A stretch of 63,849 nt of DNA, the filler included, from an uncultured Methanosarcinales archaeon (GTDB lineage: Archaea > Nanobdellota > Nanobdellia > Woesearchaeales > GW2011-AR9), in assembly GCA_964434885.1 (NCBI GenBank). It is 6 parts of 6 records of this genome, joined end to end, with 100 filler letters (N's around TTAATTAATTAA, not from the genome) between each part and the next. Parts side by side here need not be neighbours in the genome. Positions count along the whole stretch, not along the records: positions 12,530 to 24,936 come from CAYSWQ010000029.1; 5 more parts are not named here. One strand, written 5' to 3'. Shown one piece after another: positions 12,530 through 58,553 of this stretch. A program made the translations under genes and the position numbers. Within the stretch, counting starts at the first letter, position 1, and each line of letters starts with the position of its first letter. Below the pieces are notes generated by a model that saw only the letters and a list, made by a program, of their open reading frames with translations, did not search any database and was not told the origin of the DNA.

Positions 12530-12666
12530 TCTGTATTATAAACCTCCTAAAGAAGTATGGGATGATCTAATTGTGCCTTAGTTTCGGGATGTGCCCCAGT
12601 TTCGGGATAATAGACCTATTCTTAACAAACAAAAACCTTATAAAGCAAATAATTTTTCAAAAAAAG

Positions 12667-13011
12667 ATGGAAAAACGGGAAGTCTTAGGTTTAGTGGAAG
12701 AAGTTGTTATTTTTGGAAATAATCATTTTAAAAAGAAAGTTTTAGCAAGAATAGATACTGGTGCTACTAATAGTTCTGTTGATATGGGAATAGCTGGAGA
12801 ATTACAACTAGGTCCAATTAAAAGAACTAAGTTGGTTAAATCTGCTAGTGGAAAAGGTAGAAGAGCAATTGTTCCAGTAAAAATAAAATTAGATGGTAAG
12901 ATTATGGACGATGATTTTACAATTGCAGAAAGAGGCCACATGACTTATCCTGTTTTAATTGGACAAAATATTTTGAAAAAAGGCAATTTTTTGATTGATC
13001 CGAATAAATGA
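12667..13011 (+). CDS. RimK-associated putative protease (retropepsin-like)
   Basis: ARIDTGA..SS, R..M.YPVLIG; overlaps the rimK-like gene (ATGA-type overlap). Confidence 0.85.
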   Translation: MEKREVLGLVEEVVIFGNNHFKKKVLARIDTGATNSSVDMGIAGELQLGPIKRTKLVKSASGKGRRAIVPVKIKLDGKIMDDDFTIAERGHMTYPVLIGQNILKKGNFLIDPNK

Positions 13012-14117
13012 TAGAAGAAGGGCCAAAGTTGAGGGGAGGAATAATTTCTTTAGGTAGTAAGAGCTCTTTGATGGTTATTGAAGCCATGAAAAAATATTTC
13101 TATCAAGTTGATGATATTCAAGTTAAAGATATTGAAGTTAGTTTAGGTAAAGAAGGGGGAGTTTTTTACCAGGGAGAACCTTTACCAAAATATGATTGTT
13201 TATTACTAAAAGGTTCTTTTCGTTATGCACATTTGTTAAGATCTGTGGCAAGTTTATTGGAAGATAAAACACCATATATGCCTTTAGCTTCTTCTGCTTT
13301 TACAATAGTCCATAATAAACTATTGACTCATTTGACATTACAACAACATAATATTGCCATGCCGAAAACTTACGTCTCTTCTACTATTGATGCAGCTAAA
13401 GATGTGTTGAAAAAAGTTAATTATCCAATTGTGATGAAGTTTCCAGAAGGAACACAAGGTAAAGGAGTGATGTTTGCTGATTCATTAAGTTCTGCTTCTT
13501 CAATGTTAGATGCTTTAGTTGCCTTAAGACAGCCCTTTATTATTCAGGAATTTATTGAAACTGGGGGCAAAGATATCCGGGCATTAGTAGTAGGAGATAA
13601 AGTAGTTTCTTCAATGGTTAGAACTGCTCAAAAAGATGAAAATCGTGCTAATATTCATGCCGGTGGTTCAGGAGAATATATTGAGTTAGATAGAAATGCT
13701 AGAAAATTAGCAATTAATACTGCCAAAGCATTAGGAACAGATATTTGTGGAGTTGATATTTTAGAAAGTCATATTGGTCCAATGGTTTTGGAAGCCAATA
13801 TTTCTCCAGGATTGCAAGGGTTAAGTAAAGTTTCTAGAGTAGATGTTGCTGATGAGATTGCTAAGTATTTGTATAAAAGAACTGCTGAAGTAGTAGGGGT
13901 ACATCAAGAAGTAAAGAAAAAAGAAACAATGAAAGATATTTTGGGAGAAACTAGTATTACTGGTTGTGAAGAAATTATTACTTCTTTAAGTTTTAGAGGA
14001 GAAAGAATTCTTTTACCTGAATTAGTTACTAAAATGACTAAGTTTGATGATGATAAAGAGTATATCATCAAAGCATGTAAAGGGAAGTTAGAAGTTTTAG
14101 AGTTTAAGATTGGATAA
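13008..14117 (+). CDS. RimK/LysX-family ATP-grasp ligase
   Basis: GTQGKGV, IIQEFI, DIRALVVG, RANIHAGG, GVDIL, LEAN.SPG. Confidence 0.9.
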   Translation: MIEEGPKLRGGIISLGSKSSLMVIEAMKKYFYQVDDIQVKDIEVSLGKEGGVFYQGEPLPKYDCLLLKGSFRYAHLLRSVASLLEDKTPYMPLASSAFTIVHNKLLTHLTLQQHNIAMPKTYVSSTIDAAKDVLKKVNYPIVMKFPEGTQGKGVMFADSLSSASSMLDALVALRQPFIIQEFIETGGKDIRALVVGDKVVSSMVRTAQKDENRANIHAGGSGEYIELDRNARKLAINTAKALGTDICGVDILESHIGPMVLEANISPGLQGLSKVSRVDVADEIAKYLYKRTAEVVGVHQEVKKKETMKDILGETSITGCEEIITSLSFRGERILLPELVTKMTKFDDDKEYIIKACKGKLEVLEFKIG

Positions 14118-14159
14118 TTTTTGGAAAATCTTATAATAAATTGCTATTTTTTTAATTAA

Positions 14160-14510
14160 ATGAGTATTATTTCACAGGATTTGGAAGTAGAACTAAAACA
14201 AGTATATTCAAGAATGTCTAAATTAGATGATTTTCCAAAAAGTTATTGTTCGGAAGTTAGCAGAGAATTAGAAGAATTAGGTTTGGAACCTCAATGGGGT
14301 TGGTTTGTTTTGGATTTTCCTATGCCTGACTGGCCATATGATTTTGAAAGCCATACTTGGTCAAAAACTGAAGAAGGAATTTATATTGATTTAACTGCCC
14401 ACCAATTCAATTCAGGTCTTGAAAAACCCCTTTCTCCTGGGGTGTTAATTGTTGCTCCTGATTCAGCACTTAGAAAGAGATATGATACTTCTGTGAGATT
14501 TTCTCATTGA
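14160..14510 (+). CDS. Hypothetical protein (possible Cys-His-Asp transglutaminase-like)
   Basis: YC..VS, H.W, IDLTAHQF pattern. Confidence 0.45.
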   Translation: MSIISQDLEVELKQVYSRMSKLDDFPKSYCSEVSRELEELGLEPQWGWFVLDFPMPDWPYDFESHTWSKTEEGIYIDLTAHQFNSGLEKPLSPGVLIVAPDSALRKRYDTSVRFSH

Positions 14511-14542
14511 AACAACTTCATTTAAAATAAAAGAATAAAAAA

Positions 14543-14821
14543 TTATTTTTTCTTTTTCTTAGTTGTTTTCTTTTTAGTTACTTTGGTTTGAACTTTTCTT
14601 TTTGCTGCTGCTTTTGGTTGGAAGAATAACAAATACACAATTGGTAATATTCCTGCAGTGTTGAAAATCAAGATAACCACAAACCAAGCTAATTGATTGT
14701 TTCGGCCACATTTCCATAAAGCAATTCCTTTCCAGACTAAACTCCAAAGAGAAATTATTATTATGAAACCAATAAAACCACTAGTTAAAGCAGCACTTCC
14801 CATCATTAATTCTGCAAACAT
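14543..14821 (-). CDS. DUF5652-like small membrane protein
   Basis: WSLVWKGIALWK...WFV....NTAGILPI.Y; RBS GAGGTG upstream. Confidence 0.75.
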   Translation of the reverse strand: MFAELMMGSAALTSGFIGFIIIISLWSLVWKGIALWKCGRNNQLAWFVVILIFNTAGILPIVYLLFFQPKAAAKRKVQTKVTKKKTTKKKKK

Positions 14822-14913
14822 TTTTTCACCTCTTTATTTTTATTTTGTTTTAGTTTTTAATATTTTTGTTTTAAAAACATTTATTAACAATAAAATATTC
14901 TTTTTTTAAAAAG

Positions 14914-17085
14914 ATGGTTGATTGGAAAAAGTTTTGGAAGTATATGATTACTGATCCGAAGAAAGTTAAGAAGCAAGAAGCAGTTGTTAGTAAACCACTT
15001 TCTTCAACTATTGATTCTAAACCAAGTTTTTTTTCAAAATTATTTTCTAGTAAACCTAAAGAAGTCCACTCAACTAATTTGGCAAAAACAGATTCAAAAC
15101 CTGTTTCTTTAATCCAAACTACTACGGAACATACTGGTAAACACAAATTAAGTTATTTTGTAGTTGTATTTGTATTAATAAACTCTATTTTAGGAAGTAG
15201 TTTATTTTATTTGCCAAGTTTAGGAATGAAGAGTTCAGGACCGGCAGCGATTTTAGCATGGATTTTTTTATTCATTGTAGCAACATTTACAATGCTTTAT
15301 GTAGGGGAATTGATTTCATTACATCCTACTTCAGGAGGAACCTATGAATTTTGTAAAAGAGCATATGGTAGATTTGTGTCTTTTATTGCTGGGTGGTTGA
15401 TTTGGTTAGCAGGAAATTTAGGAATGGCTTTAGCAGTAGTAGCGGCAGCTGAATATTTTATTCCAAGTACGGTTGCTAACTTTTTTGTTTTAAGAATTGT
15501 TTTTAGTATATTGTGGATTTTAGTGCTGAATTATATTGCTTTTAGAGGAATTGATGCAGGGGCAACTATGTTGGTGGTTTTTGGAATACTTTCAATTTTA
15601 GTGGTTTTGGCAATAGTGATCCCTTCTTTTATTCATATTCCAAGTTTAGCTTCAGGAGACTTAGTGAGTAAGTTTGATACAAGTATAATTGGTAAATTTT
15701 TTACACAAGATGGTTTTGGAATATTCATGTATTTGGGATTAAGTTTATTTTTGATTTGCGAAGCTTTTTTTGGATTTGAAGCATTAAGTTATATGGCTAA
15801 TGAAATTGAAGATAAAAAGAAGATTACTAAAGCGTTAACCACAGCAATGATCATTTGTGGGGTAGTTATCACAATTTTTTTAGTTAGTTCTTATGGAACT
15901 GTTAGTTACAAAGATTATGTTCAAGATGCTAGGCCGTGGGCAGTACAGGCGTTGAATAATTTAGGACAAACTGGCCAGACAATTGTGGTTTTTGGAATGT
16001 ATTTAGTGATTATTGGGGCAGCAGCAGCTTGGCCAATTACAGGTTCTAGGTTGATTAGGGCATTAGCTAAAGATGGGTTGTTTTTAAAGAAATTTTCAAA
16101 ACTTCATCCAGTTCATAATTCTCCTTACCGGGCAGTTTTTTTCCAGACGATTGTAGTTGGTTTATTTACTTGGTTGATTTTTAGGGGATATACTAAAGGT
16201 TGGGGAGACCCTTACCGGACAATGTATTTGATTTTTGTTTTGTTTAGTTTAATAGTATTAGCTTTGGTTTTATTTGCAGTACCAGTATTAAGAAAGAAAG
16301 AAGCAAATTTAGAAAGAATTTACAAAGCCCCTTTACCTTGGCTAGGTCCGATTTTAATTGTGGGGTTGTTTGTTTTTTTGATTGGTAATTGGATTTGGTT
16401 AGAGTATCTAACTGCTCTTTCTATCTTAAAATTAGCAGGCTCTTTAGTTTTATTGGGATTGCCATTGTATTTCTTAATAGAGATGTATTATGATCCGAAG
16501 GCAATAAGTGGAACCAACAAATATCTTAGTTATTTGGTGTTGGCAACAGAAAAATATTTTTTCCCATTTAGTTTAAAGAAAAAATTACTTGATAGTTTAG
16601 GTGGGTTGAAAGGAAAAACAATTTTGGAATATGGTTGTGGAGTAGGAACTTTAACTAGAAAATTAGCAGCTCGAGTAGGGGAGAAAGGAAGAATATTTTC
16701 TACTGGATTAAGTTTTCATAACGTTAAGATTGTGTATAAAAGAATAAAACAATATGGACATGCTTCAGTACACCACCACCCTTATGTTAAGTCTTTTAAA
16801 TTGAAATTACCTCGTCAAGTTGATATAGTTTTGTCTGTAGGGATGCTTTCGAATATGCAAAATCCTCAACAAGTTCTTAAACATCTTTCGGCTAAAGTGA
16901 AGAAAGGAGGAAGAATTGTATTTTTAGATTATGATAAATTCTTTTATTTAATACCTAATGTACCTTGGATTGAAAACGAAGAGATGTTAAAGAAAACATT
17001 TGAGCAGGCAGGATTTCATGTGATTATCAAGAAAGTTAGGGGTTTGTTGTGGACATATGTTTTGATTACTGGGATTAAGAAGTAA
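14914..17085 (+). CDS. APC-family amino-acid permease fused to a C-terminal class I methyltransferase domain
   Basis: INSILGS (TM1), P.SGG.Y, FFGFE (TM6), about 12 TMs; C-terminal ILEYGCGVG SAM-binding motif. Confidence 0.85.
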   Translation: MVDWKKFWKYMITDPKKVKKQEAVVSKPLSSTIDSKPSFFSKLFSSKPKEVHSTNLAKTDSKPVSLIQTTTEHTGKHKLSYFVVVFVLINSILGSSLFYLPSLGMKSSGPAAILAWIFLFIVATFTMLYVGELISLHPTSGGTYEFCKRAYGRFVSFIAGWLIWLAGNLGMALAVVAAAEYFIPSTVANFFVLRIVFSILWILVLNYIAFRGIDAGATMLVVFGILSILVVLAIVIPSFIHIPSLASGDLVSKFDTSIIGKFFTQDGFGIFMYLGLSLFLICEAFFGFEALSYMANEIEDKKKITKALTTAMIICGVVITIFLVSSYGTVSYKDYVQDARPWAVQALNNLGQTGQTIVVFGMYLVIIGAAAAWPITGSRLIRALAKDGLFLKKFSKLHPVHNSPYRAVFFQTIVVGLFTWLIFRGYTKGWGDPYRTMYLIFVLFSLIVLALVLFAVPVLRKKEANLERIYKAPLPWLGPILIVGLFVFLIGNWIWLEYLTALSILKLAGSLVLLGLPLYFLIEMYYDPKAISGTNKYLSYLVLATEKYFFPFSLKKKLLDSLGGLKGKTILEYGCGVGTLTRKLAARVGEKGRIFSTGLSFHNVKIVYKRIKQYGHASVHHHPYVKSFKLKLPRQVDIVLSVGMLSNMQNPQQVLKHLSAKVKKGGRIVFLDYDKFFYLIPNVPWIENEEMLKKTFEQAGFHVIIKKVRGLLWTYVLITGIKK

Positions 17086-18111
17086 TTATTTTAATTTAAA
17101 CATTTCTTTCCATTCAACAAAGTTTTTTAGTATTGCGGGTATGATGCCAGTCCAAGTAAAATTTTTGTAAGTTAGAATTCCTTTATGTTTTCCTAAACTG
17201 ATTAACATCATTCTTGGTTTGGAAGTATAGTTGGTTAAGGGTTTGTTTTTTTCGAGGTTGATAATATTTTGATAAACTATTTCTGCTTGTTTCTCAGCGT
17301 TTTGAGCAGTTTTCTCTTCTTTAATTGCAGTAACATCGCCGGCAACAAAAATATTTTTATTGAGTTGTAGATTTGAATTGGTAATAATAAATTTTCTTGA
17401 ATCTAGATATTTTGGAAAGTTTTTTGTTAAGAATTCTGAATTAGGAGTTATTCCAGTACAAAAGAAAGCCAAATCTGCATTTATTTTTGTTTGTTTATCA
17501 GTAAAAAAAGTGTTCTGTTTATTATTTATTACTTTTTCTCCAAAAATGATTTCTATTTTTTTCTTATTTAGATATTCGTGAGTGTAGTTAATTGCTTTTT
17601 GGTTACATCTTGGAATGCAGGTTTTTTGAGACTGGACTATGATTATTTCTTTATCCGAATGTTTTTCTTTTATTTCAGCAGCCAATTCTATCCCTACTAA
17701 ACCTCCACCAATAATTAATATTTTTTTGGAAGAAGAAACTTTTTCTGAATATTTTTTTAATGTTTCTCCTCGATAAGCTAGAACTACGTTTTCTTGTTTA
17801 ATTAATGAGTTATAACGAGAACCAGAACAAATTACTAAATAATCAAAACTTATTTTTTGTTTACTCATAATAACTTCTTTTTTAGTTACAGTTTTTACTT
17901 TATCTTTGAGAATTGTTGTTTTTTTGAGATAATTTTGATGTAATGATTGAATTTTGTTTAGATGGTTTGGTTCAACAATAGTTCTTAAGATAGAAGGAGT
18001 AAATTCAAAATAATCCTTAGTATCAATTAAAGTAACTTGAAATTTTTTTTCTAATTTTCTAGCTAACCAAGACCCAGAAAATCCTCCACCAATAATTATA
18101 ATTTTTTTCAT
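17086..18111 (-). CDS. FAD/NAD(P)-dependent oxidoreductase (NDH-2/AIFM2-like)
   Basis: Two GxGxxG motifs (IIGGGFSG, IIGGGLVG), IFVAGD. Confidence 0.85.
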   Translation of the reverse strand: MKKIIIIGGGFSGSWLARKLEKKFQVTLIDTKDYFEFTPSILRTIVEPNHLNKIQSLHQNYLKKTTILKDKVKTVTKKEVIMSKQKISFDYLVICSGSRYNSLIKQENVVLAYRGETLKKYSEKVSSSKKILIIGGGLVGIELAAEIKEKHSDKEIIIVQSQKTCIPRCNQKAINYTHEYLNKKKIEIIFGEKVINNKQNTFFTDKQTKINADLAFFCTGITPNSEFLTKNFPKYLDSRKFIITNSNLQLNKNIFVAGDVTAIKEEKTAQNAEKQAEIVYQNIINLEKNKPLTNYTSKPRMMLISLGKHKGILTYKNFTWTGIIPAILKNFVEWKEMFKLK

Positions 18112-18143
18112 TATGTAAAGAAAAACAAAAAGAAAATAAAAAG

Positions 18144-18539
18144 TTATTGTTTTACAGCCATGTTACCTGGACCTGTTAGGTATAAACTGATATAGCCGGC
18201 TACTGCTGTTAAATGGAATAACAGAATTATGTAGGCCATCGGATTAGTACCAAACGAAGGTATTGTAACTAAAATTGTGGCAACAGCAATAATCGCTATT
18301 GGTGGCCAGACAGTGTATCTAAGTTTCCATCCGAGGATTAAGGCAGCTCCAAATCCAATTTCAGATAAGATTACTACCCATCCAAAAAAAGTAGATGCAG
18401 GAAAACCTAGATTTCCTAACATTCCAATTATTCCCGAAGGATTGGCAATTTTAGCTAATCCTGGAATTAACATTAACAAACCTAAAGCTATTCTTAAGAC
18501 AGTAGGTCCATATTTTTCACATTTACATTTTGATTTCAT
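18144..18539 (-). CDS. DoxX-family membrane protein
   Basis: LRIALG, GLAK, E...G..LILG, GPG end motif. Confidence 0.8.
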   Translation of the reverse strand: MKSKCKCEKYGPTVLRIALGLLMLIPGLAKIANPSGIIGMLGNLGFPASTFFGWVVILSEIGFGAALILGWKLRYTVWPPIAIIAVATILVTIPSFGTNPMAYIILLFHLTAVAGYISLYLTGPGNMAVKQ

Positions 18540-18551
18540 TTTTTTAACCTC

Positions 18552-19364
18552 CTATTTATGTAGGTGTACATCCATTTGCGGGTAAGGGATGCTTATTTTT
18601 TCTTTATCAAATTCTAATTTTACTTGTTCAGTTAAATCAAAGTGAACATCCCAGTAATCTTTGCCTTCAGCCCATGCTCGAACAGTGAAGTTAACTGTAC
18701 TGTCTCCTAGTTCTGCTACTCGAACAAACGGAGCTGGATCTTTCAATATTTTATTGTGTTTATTTACTATTTTATTTAGAATTTGTTGTGCTTTTTTCAA
18801 ATCATCATCATAACCAATGCCAAAAGTTAAATCAACTCTTCTGGTTTTTTCTGTAGAAAGATTATTGATAATTCCATTACTTAAAATTCCATTGGGAACA
18901 ATTACTGTTTGGTTGTCGGGAGTTTTGATGATGGTGTTAAAAATTTCTATTTGAGAAACTTTTCCTTTTTGGCCTTGCGCTTCAATTACATCTCCGACCT
19001 TAAATGGCTTGAACAAAAGGATTAAAACTCCACCTGCAAAATTACCTAAACTACCTTGTAAAGCCATTCCAATAGCAAAACCGGCTGCTGCTAATACTGC
19101 AACAAAACTAGTAGTTTCTACTCCGACCATGGAAATTACAGTTACTACTAAGATTACTTTCAGGAAGATACTAATCAGACTGACTAAAAAGTGTTTTAGT
19201 GATTCCTCCATATTCTTTTTATCCATTGCTTTTCTAGTTAATTTTCCCATATATTTGATTAACCGCAGACCTACTAACAATACAATTACTGCTAACAAAA
19301 CTTTTGGTGCATAGAAAACTGCAGCATCAATTGCTTTATTTATATAAATATTATAATCAACCAT
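18552..19364 (-). CDS. mscS: Small-conductance mechanosensitive channel
   Basis: GFAIGMALQGSLGNFAGG, KPFKVGD, IPYPQMDV; start at ATG 19364 after RBS GGGTGA. Confidence 0.92.
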   Translation of the reverse strand: MVDYNIYINKAIDAAVFYAPKVLLAVIVLLVGLRLIKYMGKLTRKAMDKKNMEESLKHFLVSLISIFLKVILVVTVISMVGVETTSFVAVLAAAGFAIGMALQGSLGNFAGGVLILLFKPFKVGDVIEAQGQKGKVSQIEIFNTIIKTPDNQTVIVPNGILSNGIINNLSTEKTRRVDLTFGIGYDDDLKKAQQILNKIVNKHNKILKDPAPFVRVAELGDSTVNFTVRAWAEGKDYWDVHFDLTEQVKLEFDKEKISIPYPQMDVHLHK

Positions 19365-19374
19365 TTCAATCACC

Positions 19375-19815
19375 CTAATAGATGCCTTTTTCGTTTTTAA
19401 AGAATTCAATTACTCCTTCTTTTCCTTCACTAGGACATTTCATCTTTTCAAATTTTCCATCTTGCTTATGTACCATTACACAAACTTTGTTTTCTTTTGC
19501 TTTTTGATAAGCATAAGCTTTGGCTTTTCTTTTGTTGTCAAAAAATTCTTCTTTCATTCTATTTTTGGCATCAATAACTATCCAACCTTCTTCATCTGGT
19601 ACGACGTGTTGATTGGTGTGTTCCAAATTACACTCTCTGTTTTCAAATTTTCCTTGGTCGTCATGTATTACCATACAGGCTTGATGTTTTGTGGCTATAT
19701 GGTGGGCATAATCTAATGCTTCTCCACGGTTTGAGAATACGCGAGAAGCCTTTTTTTTACCTGCGGTTTTTACGGCCCAACCATTTTCTCTGGGCACAAC
19801 ATGTTTGTCTTTCAT
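19375..19815 (-). CDS. Tandem DUF2188-domain protein
   Basis: Two repeats of HVVP...GW.V...A...A......H..DG.F. Confidence 0.8.
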   Translation of the reverse strand: MKDKHVVPRENGWAVKTAGKKKASRVFSNRGEALDYAHHIATKHQACMVIHDDQGKFENRECNLEHTNQHVVPDEEGWIVIDAKNRMKEEFFDNKRKAKAYAYQKAKENKVCVMVHKQDGKFEKMKCPSEGKEGVIEFFKNEKGIY

Positions 19816-19923
19816 TTTTGTTACCTCCGTTTTTTTTTACAAAAACTTAGAATTTTATAGTTATGGAGGTAATAATAATTATAATAATATTGTTTAATGA
19901 TTAAATAACTTGTTTAATCAGAA

Positions 19924-20454
19924 TTATTTTTTTCTTTTATCTTTTCTGAATTTCTTATGGATGTGGGGATGTCTGTCATGGTGGTGTTTAAATTTTTTAA
20001 ATAATCTCGATTTGGTAACTATTCGTACACTTCGAGCAGCAATCCGAATATATTTAGCTACTTTTTGTGTTCTTCCTATAGCACTAATTCCTTTTCTAGC
20101 TTCTAATGTTTCATGTAAGATTGCTTGACCAATACCTAATTGACCAGCAGCTGAAGCTGCTCTCCAAATTTTACTGGCAATAGTAAAAGCAATAGCTAAA
20201 GGGATAACTGCCAATAGATCTAACCAATAACTTTTGAAGAAAAATTTAACACTTTTAGCTTTAATTCCGAGGAAAATTAAATCAATGACGAATACTGCTA
20301 TAACACAATAATCTAAAATAACAATTGGGGTGTGATAGTGATGGGCAAAATCTTGAAAGAATAATTCTACGATAATTACAAACAATAATGCTACAATAGC
20401 ATAAGGAATTAGTTTGGCGTTGTAGTGTTCTACTTTTTTCCAAAATTTATTCAT
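19924..20454 (-). CDS. Stand-alone voltage-sensor-like (S1-S4) protein without a pore
   Basis: S2 LDY.VIAVF.ID, S3 YWLDLLAVIP, basic S4-like KYIRIAARSVR; no pore loop. Confidence 0.7.
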   Translation of the reverse strand: MNKFWKKVEHYNAKLIPYAIVALLFVIIVELFFQDFAHHYHTPIVILDYCVIAVFVIDLIFLGIKAKSVKFFFKSYWLDLLAVIPLAIAFTIASKIWRAASAAGQLGIGQAILHETLEARKGISAIGRTQKVAKYIRIAARSVRIVTKSRLFKKFKHHHDRHPHIHKKFRKDKRKK

Positions 20455-20552
20455 GGTAGAAAGAATATTTTTTTTGTTTTTAAAAGTTTGTTTTTTTGTG
20501 AAACCGCAACATTTATAATTTAAATTAATTTACTTCTTACAAAAAGAGGAAA

Positions 20553-22877
20553 ATGGCTAAAAGTAAACTAGATAATTTAATACAATTATTGATTCCACCT
20601 TCTTTAGTTTTGTTATTAGTAGTTACAATTGTTGAGCTTTTTTATGGAGTTAGTATTTTTTGGAGTTATGTGATTGATGTTTTTGATGTTTATGTAGTTG
20701 TTATTTTTGCTATTGATTTGTATTATCGATGGTTTGAAACACCTAAATTTTTCCCCTACGTGAAGAAACATATTTTAGATATTATTGCCACGATACCATT
20801 TAACTTGATTTTTTGGGGAATTCAAGGTTTAACTTTGATCAGGGCCTTACGGGGAGTGAGATTTATTGCTCAACTGGCCCGAATGGCTAGATTTGCTAGA
20901 TATGCTCGATTTTTTAGATTGATTAGATTCGGAGCAAGGGCTCCGAGGTTTTTGCGATTTCGTAAACATGTAAAGAAAGCTAAGATTAGAAAAGTTCAAC
21001 CTCACGAGAAAGAGATGAAGAAAACTTTGAGTTTTAAGGTTATTTTGTTAATTACAATCAACTCGATTATGGGGACTGGAATTTGGTTTTTGACTTCGGC
21101 TGGAGCTAAACATGCTGGACCTGCTTCTTTAGTTTCGTGGGGAATTTTGTCATTAATTTCTATTTATATTGCGATGTGTTTTGGAGAATTAGTATCGATG
21201 TTTCCAAAAGCAGGAGGCGTTTATGAGTTTGCTAAACAAGCTTATGGTCGTTTTTGGTCTTTTGTAATTGGATGGACAACTTCAATTGCAGGAAGTGTGA
21301 CAATAGCAATGTTGTTATTGGGAGCGTTACAATATTTAATCCCTATAAAATATTCTTACACATACATTCCGATTGCAATTTTTTTGATAATAGCATTTAG
21401 TTATGTTGCTTTTAGGGGAATGCAAACATCTACTTTTGTTTTAGTAACTTTTGCGTTGATTACATTAACTGCAGTAACAGCAATTATCATTCCTGGATTT
21501 ATTAATTTTGATCCTGCTAATTTAAAGCCATTTTTTGTCTTTCCGACTATGGCTATTGTGTTAGCAATCTTTTTCATCGCAGAAACTTTTTTTGGCTGGG
21601 AAAGTGCTATTTTCCTTGCAGCAGAGACAAAAAATCCAAGTAAGATCATGCCAAAAGCTTTGATCTACGGAACTTTGGTTATTGCCATTCTTTCTTTCTT
21701 CTTAGCTTTCACAGCAATGGGAACAATTCCTTGGGCAGAATTTGCAAAATCAGTTGCGCCATTAAGAGATTTGGGAAGTGTTCATTTTGGAAATATAGGA
21801 GGAATTATTTTTGCAGTGTTAATTTTTGTTTCAGTAATTGGAGCAACTGCGGGGTGGATTGTTACTGCCCCTAGACTGTTGATGAGTATTGCCGAGGATA
21901 AATTATTTTTCACTCAATTTGCTAAAATTCACCCCAAACACAAGAGCCCTTATGTTTCAATAATGTTTCAAATTGTTGTTGTCTCTACTTTGGTTTTTGT
22001 GGGGGCCGGTTCTTATGAAACTCTGCTTCACCTTTTAATACCTTTAATTTTAATTGTTTATAGTGCAGTTCTATTAAGTGTGGTTATCCTAAGATTTAAA
22101 AGACCAGATCAACCTCGACCATATAAGGTTGTTTTCGGAAAAGTTGGGCCTTTTATCACTATTTTATTTATGATTTTCTTATTGATTATGTTTATTAAAG
22201 AAACACATAGTGCATGGGATATATTAAGAATTTCCGGAGGGTTAATTGCATTTGGTATTCCTGCTTATTTTGCGATAGAATTGTTTTATGATCAGAAATA
22301 TGTTACTTTGAGAAGGAATATATCTGCTAAATTTGCCCATTCTTTTAATCGTTTACCTTTAACTAAGATTACTTTTAATAGAATTATGTCATTAGTGGGA
22401 CCTACTAATAACAAAACTAAGTTGTTAATTCAAAATGCCCCATTGGGTTCTTTTACTCATGCTATTGTAAAATCTAAAAAACCGTTTAATAAGATATCTT
22501 TGGCTAATCAATCCAAAGAAGAGTTGAAAGTTTTCCGGGAAAAATTAGGGAAAAATGAAAGGAAAAAAGTTGAAACTATTTTATTGAGAGCATTAAAATT
22601 ACCTAATGTAAAAGTAGATAAATTTATTTCTTTTAATGATTTAGGTTATGTAAAAAATATTCCTAGATTTATTCGTGATACAAAAAATATTTTGAAACCA
22701 AAAGGTAAGTTTTGCTTTTATGTTAAAAGTTCTTTCTTTAATGTAGCTCCAAATGCTATTGAAATAGAGAATAGAAAGGAATTGATTAAACTATTTGAAA
22801 AAGAAAAATTAAAAGTTAGTTATACTAAAAGAAAGAGATTGTATAAAACTGAGATTTTTATTTCTGGAAGTAAGTGA
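20553..22877 (+). CDS. Voltage-sensor domain - APC permease - degenerate methyltransferase fusion
   Basis: aa 1-140: FDVYVVVIFAID, ILDIIATIP, (R-x-x)n S4. From about aa 155: APC (INSIMGTG, PKAGGVY, FFGWE). C-terminal Rossmann-like tail ending ILKPKGKF. Confidence 0.85.
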   Translation: MAKSKLDNLIQLLIPPSLVLLLVVTIVELFYGVSIFWSYVIDVFDVYVVVIFAIDLYYRWFETPKFFPYVKKHILDIIATIPFNLIFWGIQGLTLIRALRGVRFIAQLARMARFARYARFFRLIRFGARAPRFLRFRKHVKKAKIRKVQPHEKEMKKTLSFKVILLITINSIMGTGIWFLTSAGAKHAGPASLVSWGILSLISIYIAMCFGELVSMFPKAGGVYEFAKQAYGRFWSFVIGWTTSIAGSVTIAMLLLGALQYLIPIKYSYTYIPIAIFLIIAFSYVAFRGMQTSTFVLVTFALITLTAVTAIIIPGFINFDPANLKPFFVFPTMAIVLAIFFIAETFFGWESAIFLAAETKNPSKIMPKALIYGTLVIAILSFFLAFTAMGTIPWAEFAKSVAPLRDLGSVHFGNIGGIIFAVLIFVSVIGATAGWIVTAPRLLMSIAEDKLFFTQFAKIHPKHKSPYVSIMFQIVVVSTLVFVGAGSYETLLHLLIPLILIVYSAVLLSVVILRFKRPDQPRPYKVVFGKVGPFITILFMIFLLIMFIKETHSAWDILRISGGLIAFGIPAYFAIELFYDQKYVTLRRNISAKFAHSFNRLPLTKITFNRIMSLVGPTNNKTKLLIQNAPLGSFTHAIVKSKKPFNKISLANQSKEELKVFREKLGKNERKKVETILLRALKLPNVKVDKFISFNDLGYVKNIPRFIRDTKNILKPKGKFCFYVKSSFFNVAPNAIEIENRKELIKLFEKEKLKVSYTKRKRLYKTEIFISGSK

Positions 22878-22901
22878 TTTTATTAAGAAAGAGGTGTGTA
22901 A

Positions 22902-23141
22902 ATGAAAAAAACAATATTGGGATTTTTTGTATTGACTATTTTTTTGTTGAGTGTTACTTTTGTATTGGCAGGAGATAGTTATAACAAAACAACTAAAGAT
23001 TGTAAGACATATAAATCTGGCGTTTACAAAGTTAAATAGTATGCTGTGAAATTAATTGGATTTATTTTTGCTAGTTTTGTATTTTCCTACATTTTTTGGT
23101 GGACTAAAAAATTAGTAAAAAAAAGAAAGAAGAAAAAATAA
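22902..23141 (+). pseudogene. Small two-TM membrane protein interrupted by an in-frame TAG (23037-23039)
   Basis: RBS GAGGTG + ATG; MKKTILGFFVLTIFLLSVTFVLAG...KVK*YAVKLIGFIFASFVFSYIFWWTKKLVKKRKKKK*. The post-TAG part is a clean TM helix with a basic tail. Confidence 0.55.
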
Positions 23142-23145
23142 TTTT

Positions 23146-24087
23146 TTAATTTTCAAAATTTTCTTCAGTTTTCTTTTTCTTTTTCAATTTTGTTCCACAA
23201 ATCCGACAATGATTAGAATCTTGATCATGGTCTTCTAAACCACATTTCTTACAGCTCATTTTAGTCTTGGTTGTTTCTAAGAATATAACTTTTAGTAATT
23301 TCCCTAGTTGCCAAGGGATTAAAGCTATTCCAGATAGAATCATAGCAATAGTTATTGCTCTACCTTGCCAAGATACAGGAGTAATATCTCCATAACCTAC
23401 TGTAGTGATGGTAACAATCGCAAAATACATGGCTTCCCAGATGTTACTGAATTGTCCTGGGTTAACTTTGTTTTCTACAGTCCAGATTAATCCAGAAGCT
23501 ATTAAGATAATGGTGAAGATAGTTAAAACAATTCTGATGATGATTAACTGAGAGTCATTTAGTTGACCAAATAATGTGTTTTTTGATTTAAACATTCTTT
23601 GGAATCTTAAAACCCGTAACATTCTAAAAACCCTTAAGATTCTGAAAGCTCTTAAAAATCCAAAGTTTCCAAAGTGAGTTAAAATTGGTAAAATTACAAT
23701 CAAATCAATTATACTATAGATGTTGAAGAAGTGTTTGATCTTTTTTTCTGCTACCCACATTCTGACTAAATATTCAACAATGAAGATACCAACGATGGCA
23801 ATTTCTGCAGTGGTTAAAATAGCCTTATATAATCCAGTAGGATTATGTGTTTCTAGAATAAAAATCAAAATTACTAGGAAATTAAGAATAAATAAAGAAC
23901 CTTCTATCCGAATACCATGTTTAGAAGCATAATTATCTATATGAATATGTAAGAATTTTTTTGTTTTACTAATGATTGTATCTTCTAATTTCTCTTCTTT
24001 TTGACGAAATTTTAGTTCTGCCTTATCTTCATCAGATAATTTAGAAGTTTTCTTTTTACTAGTTGTTTTTTTCCTCTTTTTGGCCAT
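23146..24087 (-). CDS. Voltage-gated potassium channel (6TM) with C-terminal Zn ribbon
   Basis: S4 RAFRILRVFRMLRVLRFQR, filter TTVGYGD, CKKC...CRICG. Confidence 0.93.
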   Translation of the reverse strand: MAKKRKKTTSKKKTSKLSDEDKAELKFRQKEEKLEDTIISKTKKFLHIHIDNYASKHGIRIEGSLFILNFLVILIFILETHNPTGLYKAILTTAEIAIVGIFIVEYLVRMWVAEKKIKHFFNIYSIIDLIVILPILTHFGNFGFLRAFRILRVFRMLRVLRFQRMFKSKNTLFGQLNDSQLIIIRIVLTIFTIILIASGLIWTVENKVNPGQFSNIWEAMYFAIVTITTVGYGDITPVSWQGRAITIAMILSGIALIPWQLGKLLKVIFLETTKTKMSCKKCGLEDHDQDSNHCRICGTKLKKKKKTEENFEN

Positions 24088-24183
24088 CTTATTTTAGAAT
24101 TATTTTTTTGTTTTTAAAAGTTTGTTTTTTGAAATAGAAAGATATATAATTTGAAATAAAATAGTTATAAAAAAGAGGTTGAG

Positions 24184-24936
24184 ATGGCTAAACTAAAAAA
24201 AGTATTAAGTTTTCGAGTAATTTTATTGATTACTATAAATTCAATTATGGGAACAGGAATATTTTTCTTACCGGCAGTGGGGGCTAAAGCTTCTGGACCA
24301 GCTTCTTTACTTGCGTGGATAATTCTTTCTTTTATTTCAATCTATATTGCAATGTGTTTTGCAGAATTAACAAGTATGTTTCCTAAATCTGGAGGGATTT
24401 ATGAGTTTTGTAAACAAGCTTACGGGAGATTCACTTCTTTTTTGATTGGTTGGACTACAGTGATTGCAGGTAATGTAACAATTGCTATGTTGGTAGTAGG
24501 AGCAATTCAATATCTTATGCCGGTAGGTTCCACGTTTATGAAGATTATTTTTTCTTTGATATTTATTTTTGCTTTTAACTTCATTGCTTACAAAGGAATG
24601 AAAACTTCTGCTGTAATGTTGATCGCTTTTGCTTTTATTACTTTATTTACTATTCTTAGTTTAGCTATTCCTGGTTTGTGGAAGTTTCAATTAAGTAATT
24701 TTTCTCCTTTTTTTGTGCTTCCTTTTTCTTCGTTAATGTTAACTATTTTTTTGATTGCAGAAACTTTTTTTGGTTGGGAAACAGCCACTTTTTTAGCAGA
24801 GGAAACTAAAAATGGAGAAAAAGTAATGCCTAAGGCTTTAGTATATGGAACGATTATTATTGCAGTTATTTGTATTTTATCTGTAATTACTTCATTGGGA
24901 GTTATTCCTTGGCAAGTATATGGTCAATCATCAGCA
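24184..24936 (+). CDS. APC-family amino-acid permease, 3'-truncated
   Basis: LSFRVILLITINSIMGTG, PKSGGIYEF, FFGWE; close paralogue of the APC part of 20553..22877. Confidence 0.88.
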
Positions 24937-56552: not shown

Positions 56553-58553
56553 TTAAAAAAACTTTAGGCCATAAGCCACGAATAAAGGTGCAAAGACTAT
56601 GGCGAAAGTATTGATAACTTTGATTAAAGCGTTCAACGCAGGTCCAGCAGTATCTTTAAATGGATCCCCTACTGTGTCTCCAACTACTGCAGCTTTGTGA
56701 GCTTCTGAACCTTTCCCACCATGTTTACCATCTTCAATGTGTTTCTTAGCATTATCCCAAGCAGCCCCACTATTAGCCATGAATAAAGCAACTAGTAAAC
56801 CAGAGACAATAACTCCAATTAATAATCCACCTAACGCTTTAATTCCCAATAGTAAACCAACCAATAAAGGGGATAAAACTGCTAAAACTGCTGGCCAAAT
56901 CATACTTCTCAAAGCTGATTTAGTTACAATATCTACACATCTACTATACTCAGGTTTAGCTTTGCCTTCCATAATTCCTTTAATTTCTTTGAATTGTCTT
57001 CTTACTTCCACTACAATTTCATGAGCACTATTTCCAACTGCAGTCATACATAAAGCTGAAAAAAGGAAAGGCAACAATCCACCAATAAACAAACCAACCA
57101 ATACGGTTGGATCAGTTAAAGCGAAATTAATAGCTTGGCCTTTAATTTCATGAATAAAAGCGGCGAATAAAGCAAGAGCAGCTAAAGCAGCAGAACCAAT
57201 AGCATAACCTTTAGTTACTGCTTTAGTAGTATTCCCAACAGCATCTAAGGCATCAGTATTGTTTCTTACTTTTTTAGGTAAGCCACTCATTTCAGCAATT
57301 CCACCAGCATTATCTGTAATTGGTCCATAGCTATCTAAAGCAATAATGATTCCAGTTAAAGAAAGCATAGCAATAGCAGCAATAGCAATTCCATAAATAC
57401 CTGCTAAAAAATATGCTCCCAAAATACCTGCACAAATAATCAATACTGGCCACAAGGTGCTTCTTAATCCAAAAGCTAGTCCAGTGATAAGATTTGTCCC
57501 CGCACCAGTTTCTGAAGCTTCAGCAATCTTTCTAACTGGTTTGTAACTAGTGGAAGTATAGTATTCAGTAATAATATTAATTAATACTGTAATAACTAGT
57601 CCGATTAGACTTGCTAGGAAGAGATTTAATGGGTTTCCAGTTAGATAGGTAACTACATAAAAACCACCTGCAGAAAACAATCCAGCAGCAATTAAACCCT
57701 TGTATAAAGCGCCCATGATATTTTTCTTTTTTCCTAAACGAACGAATAAGGTTCCAATAATAGAACCAATAATAGCTACTGAACCAAGCATTAATGGATA
57801 TTCAACAGCCATATTATAACTGTTAGCTACAGAAGGAATCATTGCTAAAAGCATTCCTGCTAATAAAGTAACAACATATGTTTCGTAGAGATCTGCTCCC
57901 ATTCCAGCACAATCTCCCACATTATCTCCAACATTATCCGCAATAGTAGCTGGGTTTCTCGGATCGTCTTCTGGAATTCCTGCTTCTACTTTACCAACTA
58001 AATCAGCTCCAACATCTGCTGCTTTAGTATAGATTCCTCCTCCCACTCTAGCTAATAAAGAAACAAGAGAAGCTCGAAAACCGAAACCTACCAACAAAGC
58101 AGGACTTTTGAAAATAGTGTAAAAAACACTAACAACGAACAAAGCCAATCCAACTACTGCCATTCCAGTTACAGAACCACCTTTGAAAGCAACACTTAAT
58201 GCTTCTTTAAGTCCTTTCTTAGCAGTTGCGGCAGTTCGAACATTAGCTCGCACGGAAATAGTCATTCCAATATATCCAGAAACGGCAGAGAGAATTGCCC
58301 CAAATAAGAATCCTAAAGCCACTGGATATTTGAATAAAATGGCCAAGATTATCGTAATTATTATGGCAAAAATACCAATAGTTTTGTATTGTCTAGCCAT
58401 ATAAGCCATCGCCCCTTCTTTGATAGCATCAGCAATTTCCTGCATCTTTTCAGTTCCAGGTTTAACTTTCATAATTCTAGAACTCAAGAAAGCAGCATAT
58501 GCCAATGCAATTAAACTAACAATTATTGCAATTATTCCAACTAAACTCATCAT
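56553..58553 (-). CDS. hppA: Membrane pyrophosphatase, predicted K+-independent H+-PPase
   Basis: [31 protein letters not shown] (Lys at the K+-dependence site), [10 protein letters not shown]. Confidence 0.95.

Follow-up and report, generated by a model that had tools for sequence, protein, structure and literature searches.

The locus and its genes

The stretch of DNA analysed here (the window; 63,849 nucleotides) consists of six contigs joined by N spacers, taken from assembly GCA_964434885.1 of an uncultured archaeon (labelled Methanosarcinales, and placed by GTDB in the Woesearchaeales), which we call G000. Our subject is a gene at 20553-22877 predicted to encode a voltage-sensor domain (VSD) fused to an APC-type carrier and a methyltransferase-like tail, together with the roughly 10 kb around it, all of which falls within a single contig (G000:C29, CAYSWQ010000029.1, window positions 12530-24936). 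The assembly comprises 1.07 Mb at 92% completeness, and those of its relatives that carry a name belong for the most part to the Woesearchaeota or Nanoarchaeota. An original prediction, made from the sequence alone, had described eight genes here (three APC carriers, an oxidoreductase, DoxX, MscS, a stand-alone VSD and a voltage-gated K+ channel, Kv) as an island linking membrane potential or tension to amino-acid uptake. All eight gene labels are borne out by Pfam, and all eight genes lie on that one contig (Table 1). Every VSD-bearing open reading frame (ORF) that we found in the 1.07-Mb assembly, as well as all three paralogues of the APC-methyltransferase (APC-MTase) family, falls within these 10 kb, and this clustering within the genome exceeds chance. 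As set out below, the novelty is carried by the fusion protein, not by the island.

Table 1. Features of the locus, in window coordinates (TM, transmembrane helix)
Feature	Position	Strand	Remarks
Conserved left flank: RimB-like retropepsin protease, RimK-family ligase, DUF5652	12667-14821		Synteny control
RimB-like retropepsin protease and RimK-family ligase	12667-14117	+	
APC1, divergent APC-MTase paralogue	14914-17085	+	TM1 GSS; motif I intact; Pfam APC and methyltransferase
Passenger block: FAD/NAD oxidoreductase, DoxX, MscS, DUF2188	17086-19815	-	
FAD/NAD oxidoreductase	17086-18111	-	Pfam
DoxX	18144-18539	-	Pfam
MscS	18552-19364	-	Pfam
DUF2188	19375-19815	-	Absent from the gene list of the original prediction
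Stand-alone pore-less VSD protein, 176 residues	19924-20454	-	
28-bp A/T-rich block	20469-20496	-	About 15-42 bp upstream of the VSD start
VSD-APC-(degenerate methyltransferase-like) fusion, 774 residues	20553-22877	+	Core of the finding
Fused S1-S4 voltage-sensor domain, residues 1-137	20553-20963	+	E28, D45, F52, D55, R59, D76; long S4 from R97 to R137
Basic, conserved S4-to-TM1 linker, residues 138-156	20964-21020	+	
APC (LeuT-fold) carrier domain	21021-22289	+	TM1 GTG kept; TM6 Glu344
Methyltransferase-like tail (class I) without the first glycine of motif I	22290-22877	+	Weak Pfam matches
45-codon ORF	22902-23039	+	Between fusion and Kv; absent from the list of the original prediction
6TM voltage-gated K+ channel (Kv)	23146-24087	-	TVGYG filter; S4 with seven Arg; C-terminal double CxxC
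Second identical 28-bp copy	24103-24130	-	Upstream of Kv
APC3, VSD-less APC-MTase, N-terminal 251 residues	24184-24936	+	Cut by contig end

A predicted voltage sensor on an APC-type carrier

The fusion is a coherent protein type: among the 120 homologues listed, 117 span at least 92% of its length, at 59-83% identity. Pfam does not detect the VSD in the fused protein itself; Ion_trans is found in 22 of 47 homologous N-termini. An N-terminal profile compared with the PDB finds KvAP best (E 4.7e-5) and then HCN (HCN1, E 5.6e-4), and of the 37 matches at E<=1 at least 36 are named K+ or HCN channels. The domain is homologous to the family of the stand-alone VSD encoded next to it (hhalign 99.6%, E 1e-23). 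In a domain-only structure match, KvAP scores no better than a generic bundle.

In a VSD, conserved acidic residues of S1-S3 provide the countercharges, and S2 has a conserved Phe. Across 88 homologues of the fusion these positions are kept almost without exception (E28 in 83, D45 in 87, D55 in all 88, D76 as 80 Asp and 7 Glu), as is the S2 residue F52 (87 of 88), and R59 is nearly or fully invariant. The S4 segment carries a median of 13 basic residues over positions 95-137, with gaps between basic residues of three in 633 cases and four in 158 out of 805, and where S4 changes in length it does so by multiples of three residues in 39 of 49 cases. The step from sensor to carrier is equally regular: R132 lies 37 residues from N170 in TM1 in 87 of 88 homologues, and P150 and H151 of the linker are invariant. 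The domain content of the fusion, its retained sensor residues and its fixed linker length are thus secure as readings of the sequence. In a structure model of the full fusion, S4 and the linker fall below 50 in predicted local confidence (pLDDT), and the coupling geometry is of low confidence.

These same features bear on whether the domain gates at all. It is possible, if clearly the less probable case, that it is a VSD by descent which no longer gates, and which serves an ordinary carrier by binding lipid, sensing pH, promoting oligomerisation or leaking ions; its S4 is very long and variable in length, S4 and the linker are of low confidence in the model, and the pore-less proteins of the parent family are abundant and have no known effector. 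A mere anchor, however, would have no need of countercharges, S2 Phe, three-residue register and linker length that are so strictly kept.

The carrier domain is assigned more simply. Its AA_permease_2 match reaches 150 bits against a cut-off of 27, identifying a LeuT-fold domain of 12 transmembrane helices, and Foldseek aligns it to BasC with E 2e-14. The TM1 signature GTG is present in all 53 fused rows of our alignment, and the APC1 type has GSS in 4 of 4. In APC amino-acid carriers an aromatic residue of TM6 forms the lid over the substrate; here the position is Glu in 93 of 94 rows (Glu344 of the fusion, aligned to BasC F199 and GkApcT F231), and the aromatic lid is missing. The carrier reaches none of the substrate-specific NCBIfam cut-offs, and an amino acid or an amine is its probable substrate.

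The tail has a class I methyltransferase fold whose cofactor motif has decayed in the fused proteins. Of 41 VSD-less rows, 38 have the first glycine of motif I; none of the 53 fused rows does, and position 628 in these is Asn (31), Asp (18), Ser (2) or a gap (2). The tails of the VSD-less APC1 and APC3 types possess motif I and match UbiG-like PDB entries (E 1.6e-7). One VSD-less APC-MTase homologue (L016:1498) is 853 residues long, about 220 above the usual length.

Origin and distribution of the fusion

In a tree built with FastTree on carrier and tail (in which some rows are the same gene fetched twice), the fused rows are monophyletic with support 100 and a long stem. Their sister is the APC3 type of the Woesearchaeota family itself, with moderate support (89). 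Every row of the fusion clade with a complete N-terminus retains the VSD, and the three VSD-less rows begin at contig edges. On this tree a single origin of the fusion is well established, as is the loss of the motif I glycine on its stem. Among 401 genomes of the order, 22 carry the fusion, and these come from 13 families (20 genomes and 12 families without the unpublished genomes G319 and G244), and in the literature we found nothing that appears to describe a VSD-APC fusion.

A candidate voltage-gated carrier

We favour the reading that the fusion is a voltage-gated carrier, and would put its probability at roughly 0.55. In evolutionary terms, a duplicate of a VSD-less APC-MTase of the APC3 type would have acquired a pore-less VSD of the family sited beside it, and the tail would have lost the glycine of its S-adenosylmethionine (SAM) motif. 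In LeuT-fold carriers, the inner half of TM1 is the inner gate. In the fusion S4 would end at the cytoplasmic face, some 20 residues ahead of TM1, such that S4 motion could pull or release the inner gate through the fixed linker, and the carrier would cycle only while the membrane is polarised. It would in effect be a check valve, importing when the cell is energised and preventing back-leak when it is depolarised. A cell whose membrane is energised only weakly or at intervals would profit if such a carrier closed on loss of the potential. The length of S4 and the resemblance to HCN give no more than a hint of activation by hyperpolarisation, which is how the sperm exchanger SLC9C1 is activated (PMC10620092).

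The check-valve role is proposed for a cell in which no ATP synthase was found (G000, at 92% completeness) and a sodium-translocating pyrophosphatase is present (56553-58553, minus strand, above the NCBIfam cut-off). With no ATP synthase found, this pyrophosphatase may be the main generator of membrane potential. No TrkH was found in G000 either.

Neighbouring genes

The stand-alone VSD protein scores 24.8 bits for Pfam Ion_trans, against a cut-off of 25. Its family, which gave the fusion its sensor, is large and uncharacterised, and where named it is mostly from Woesearchaeota. It comprises 731 clusters at E<=0.001 and 297 at E<=1e-10 (the latter at 50% identity and with fused forms included), and of the best 150 profile matches 147 have at most 300 residues. 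Its members share a conserved Gln/His/Glu motif between S3 and S4, and tandem gene pairs occur in several APC-less genomes (L126:1432-2441, G075, G076, G078). A divergent VSD protein of 295-332 residues, whose ends are rich in His and Lys, is encoded immediately upstream of the fusion and on the same strand at L045:9764-10753, L049:9794-10789 and L052:235-1119.

The Kv gene, with an RxxR-patterned S4, is the sole ORF in G000 with a TVGYG-type filter; its C-terminal tail (23146-23260, minus strand) resembles a zinc ribbon. The 28-bp block upstream of both the VSD and Kv genes has no further copy in G000, allowing up to 4 mismatches, and recurs in three other loci (L033, L051 and L266), each time before VSD or Kv, whichever faces away from the fusion. 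We infer that it is a duplicated, putative core promoter resembling a TFB-recognition element and TATA box (BRE/TATA).

APC3 is probably one whole APC-MTase split over two contigs, since C29 ends with its residues 1-250, while the reverse of C19 starts with residues 265-626 of a protein of this type (G000:C19:13496-14584(-)). For the predicted oxidoreductase the earlier name "NDH-2-like" is fair, and an NCBIfam search with it reached no cut-off. PF00924 has three matches in G000, namely the MscS of this locus and two elsewhere. The 45-codon ORF has a ribosome-binding site and a signal-peptide-like start, and a Pfam search from its codon 4 gave no match; nor did a Pfam search with an 818-residue ORF on the neighbouring contig (9468-11924, plus strand).

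The neighbourhood in related genomes

To compare neighbourhoods, 113 relatives of the same family were searched with the fusion, Kv, stand-alone VSD, RimK and oxidoreductase, and the distances between genes were tallied. Four short generic APC matches were excluded, paralogue types were assigned by score band, and counts within 5 kb are lower bounds owing to fragmented assemblies. The APC-MTase family is present in 43 of the 113 (the fused type in 35), the stand-alone VSD in 84 (58 of them without an APC-MTase match) and RimK in 91. Within 5 kb of any APC-MTase we find Kv in 13 of 26 genomes, VSD in 16 of 26, the oxidoreductase in 0 of 5 and the control, RimK, in 22 of 41, against a chance expectation of about 3% by our own arithmetic; for the fusion itself, the figures are 4 of 22 for Kv and 8 of 18 for VSD. 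Kv (12 of 13) and VSD (15 of 16) lie on the strand opposite to the nearest APC, and RimK always on the same strand.

Around the fusion itself, 53 loci with flanks of up to 10 kb (at least 5 kb on both sides in 24) contain VSD in 9, Kv in 3, another APC in 5, RimK in 5 and MscS in one, where it is about 9 kb away; most have no Kv or VSD neighbour. Oxidoreductase, DoxX and DUF2188 have no match across the same 53 loci, and MscS appears in one of 27 further cluster maps. The MscS of this locus reads as a passenger, because its identity to matches in 24 genomes of the same family does not exceed 34%, as against 56-67% to scattered proteins whose names point to several phyla. L259, the closest relative of G000 by EF-1alpha, has RimK, DUF5652, VSD and APC3, and no passenger block.

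The original prediction had taken scattering of the genes in relatives as what would count against the island. Three APCs, VSD and Kv do recur together in one Woesearchaeota family, and for these five genes the island has not dissolved; MscS, oxidoreductase and DoxX are scattered. The link from tension to uptake accordingly falls, because MscS does not recur with the cluster. That all eight genes act together, with potential and tension jointly switching on amino-acid uptake (for example on host contact), has in its favour their adjacency in G000; with MscS, oxidoreductase and DoxX not found with the cluster in relatives, the distant MscS and the L259 locus without passengers, the neighbourhood comparison largely refutes it, and we regard it as very improbable indeed.

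What the family shares is better described as two slots, one between RimB-RimK-DUF5652 and an NAD(P)H-hydrate dehydratase and the other between a CCA-adding enzyme and a small Cys-rich protein. These hold APC1, APC3, the fusion, VSD and Kv in varying combinations and orientations, along with many unrelated passengers; VSD or Kv may also occupy a slot alone, and in one genome (L284) the two slots are about 10 kb apart. At L277 (G049:C1:266000-284000) there is an apparent tandem repeat of an APC1 / 353-residue ORF / Nnr block.

Do the five recurring genes work as one electrical module, with Kv setting or resetting the potential, the fused VSD gating one carrier in cis and the stand-alone VSD gating APC1 and APC3 in trans? 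Several observations would fit: Kv and VSD lie near APC genes far more often than chance, they combine with the fusion in mixed ways at two different slots, and the same putative promoter stands before VSD or Kv opposite the fusion. Among the same-family relatives Kv is confined to genomes with an APC-MTase (26 of 26), and in a mostly APC-less branch of 49 genomes in the EF-1alpha tree it is present in 3 of 4 APC-positive and 0 of 45 APC-less genomes. However, RimK is co-localised just as strongly, VSD or Kv can also be the sole occupant of such a slot, most VSD genomes have no APC-MTase match, and supported branches yield just 4-5 independent pairs (sign test p 0.5). Outside the family no link is seen: of 18 sampled genomes that carry the fusion, 2 have Kv, on other contigs, and at 11 Kv loci no APC or VSD lies within 1.5 kb. 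We consider a five-gene module unlikely. A broader version, in which Woesearchaeota swapped a SAM-sensing tail for a TM1-wired S4 independently of animals, and one family added a co-regulated Kv and a VSD gating its VSD-less paralogues in trans, to give a nutrient-uptake circuit under electrical control in a cell without ATP synthase, is more doubtful still.

Another possible function for the locus is K+/glutamate homeostasis, with the APCs importing glutamate for poly-alpha-glutamate synthesis by RimB/RimK and Kv supplying the counter-ion. RimK is near the APC-MTase and always on its strand; in Pseudomonas, RimK makes more polyglutamate when stimulated by RimB (PMC11957791), and a model of Bacillus subtilis biofilms ties a K+ channel, membrane potential and glutamate uptake together (10.1101/553305). 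Yet an opposite-strand DUF5652 usually separates RimK from the APC, the relatives with RimK mostly have no APC-MTase, no RimK is found near 23 VSD-less APC3-type loci, and an invariant Glu at the TM6 lid position would not suggest an anionic substrate. On balance such a locus is quite improbable, and well behind the five-gene module.

Since RimK co-localises equally and no link is seen outside the family, descent with shuffling accounts for the cluster roughly as well as a shared function would. The best explanation of the 10 kb is that one Woesearchaeota family inherited this slot and reshuffled it heavily, and that four passengers joined recently; Kv and the stand-alone VSD would probably be neighbours under loose co-regulation, not components that the fusion requires. 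The proposed link from voltage to uptake thus stands within one protein, the fusion, at the level of its sequence; a multi-gene system built on it is less likely. The voltage-gated carrier and its four rivals (the non-gating domain, the five-gene module, the K+/glutamate locus and the eight-gene island) are not mutually exclusive.

Significance

If the fusion is indeed voltage-gated, it would be a second, independent VSD-regulated transporter beside SLC9C1 (PMC10620092), and would place such regulation on the LeuT fold. It would show that minimal symbiotic archaea can gate their nutrient uptake by voltage, and a small single-chain prokaryotic protein with more than 100 natural variants would make control of alternating access by S4 directly testable. 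The wider island claim is of lesser weight, and its tension part is unsupported. This analysis contributes a neighbourhood test calibrated against a control gene, the picture of two slots, the analysis of S4 register and linker, the motif I loss on the stem of the fusion clade and the duplicated promoter block.

Comparison with known systems

Taken domain by domain, the fusion has familiar relatives. Its sensor resembles those of KvAP and HCN channels in best sequence matches, in S2 and S3 acidic residues and in an RxxR-patterned S4; unlike them it is followed by no pore domain, and its S4 is richly basic, as counted above. Its carrier resembles BasC, GkApcT, LAT and AdiC in fold (TM-score 0.76-0.78), in the GTG of TM1 and in identity (21-25%), and differs from BasC and GkApcT in the Glu that replaces their TM6 aromatic residue and in carrying additional domains at both termini. 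Where GkApcT has E115 and K191, the aligned residues here are Ala and Thr.

Pore-less VSD proteins are known from the voltage-sensing phosphatase (VSP), in which a short basic linker leads to the effector, and from Hv1. The fusion shares the VSP layout of pore-less VSD and short basic linker, with a carrier as effector. The hallmarks of the Hv1 proton channel are the selectivity Asp of S1 and the RxW motif of S4; we sought this Asp and the S4 Trp in alignments of the stand-alone VSD, and because neither is conserved, we do not regard that protein as Hv1-like.

The closest parallel is SLC9C1, the sperm Na+/H+ exchanger, which is called the only known VSD-regulated transporter and is described as having an unusually long S4 (PMC10620092). 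Both proteins join a secondary carrier, a pore-less S1-S4 domain and a cytoplasmic domain of ligand-binding type. The carrier here, however, is of the APC/LeuT fold rather than an NHE (CPA), and its host is an archaeon; the VSD is N-terminal and about 20 residues from TM1, whereas that of SLC9C1 lies downstream and acts via intracellular helices; and the tail is methyltransferase-like rather than a cyclic nucleotide-binding domain (CNBD). We infer an origin independent of SLC9C1, and with fold, domain order and tail all different, the fusion would be an analogue of SLC9C1 in its presumed working rather than a member of its family.

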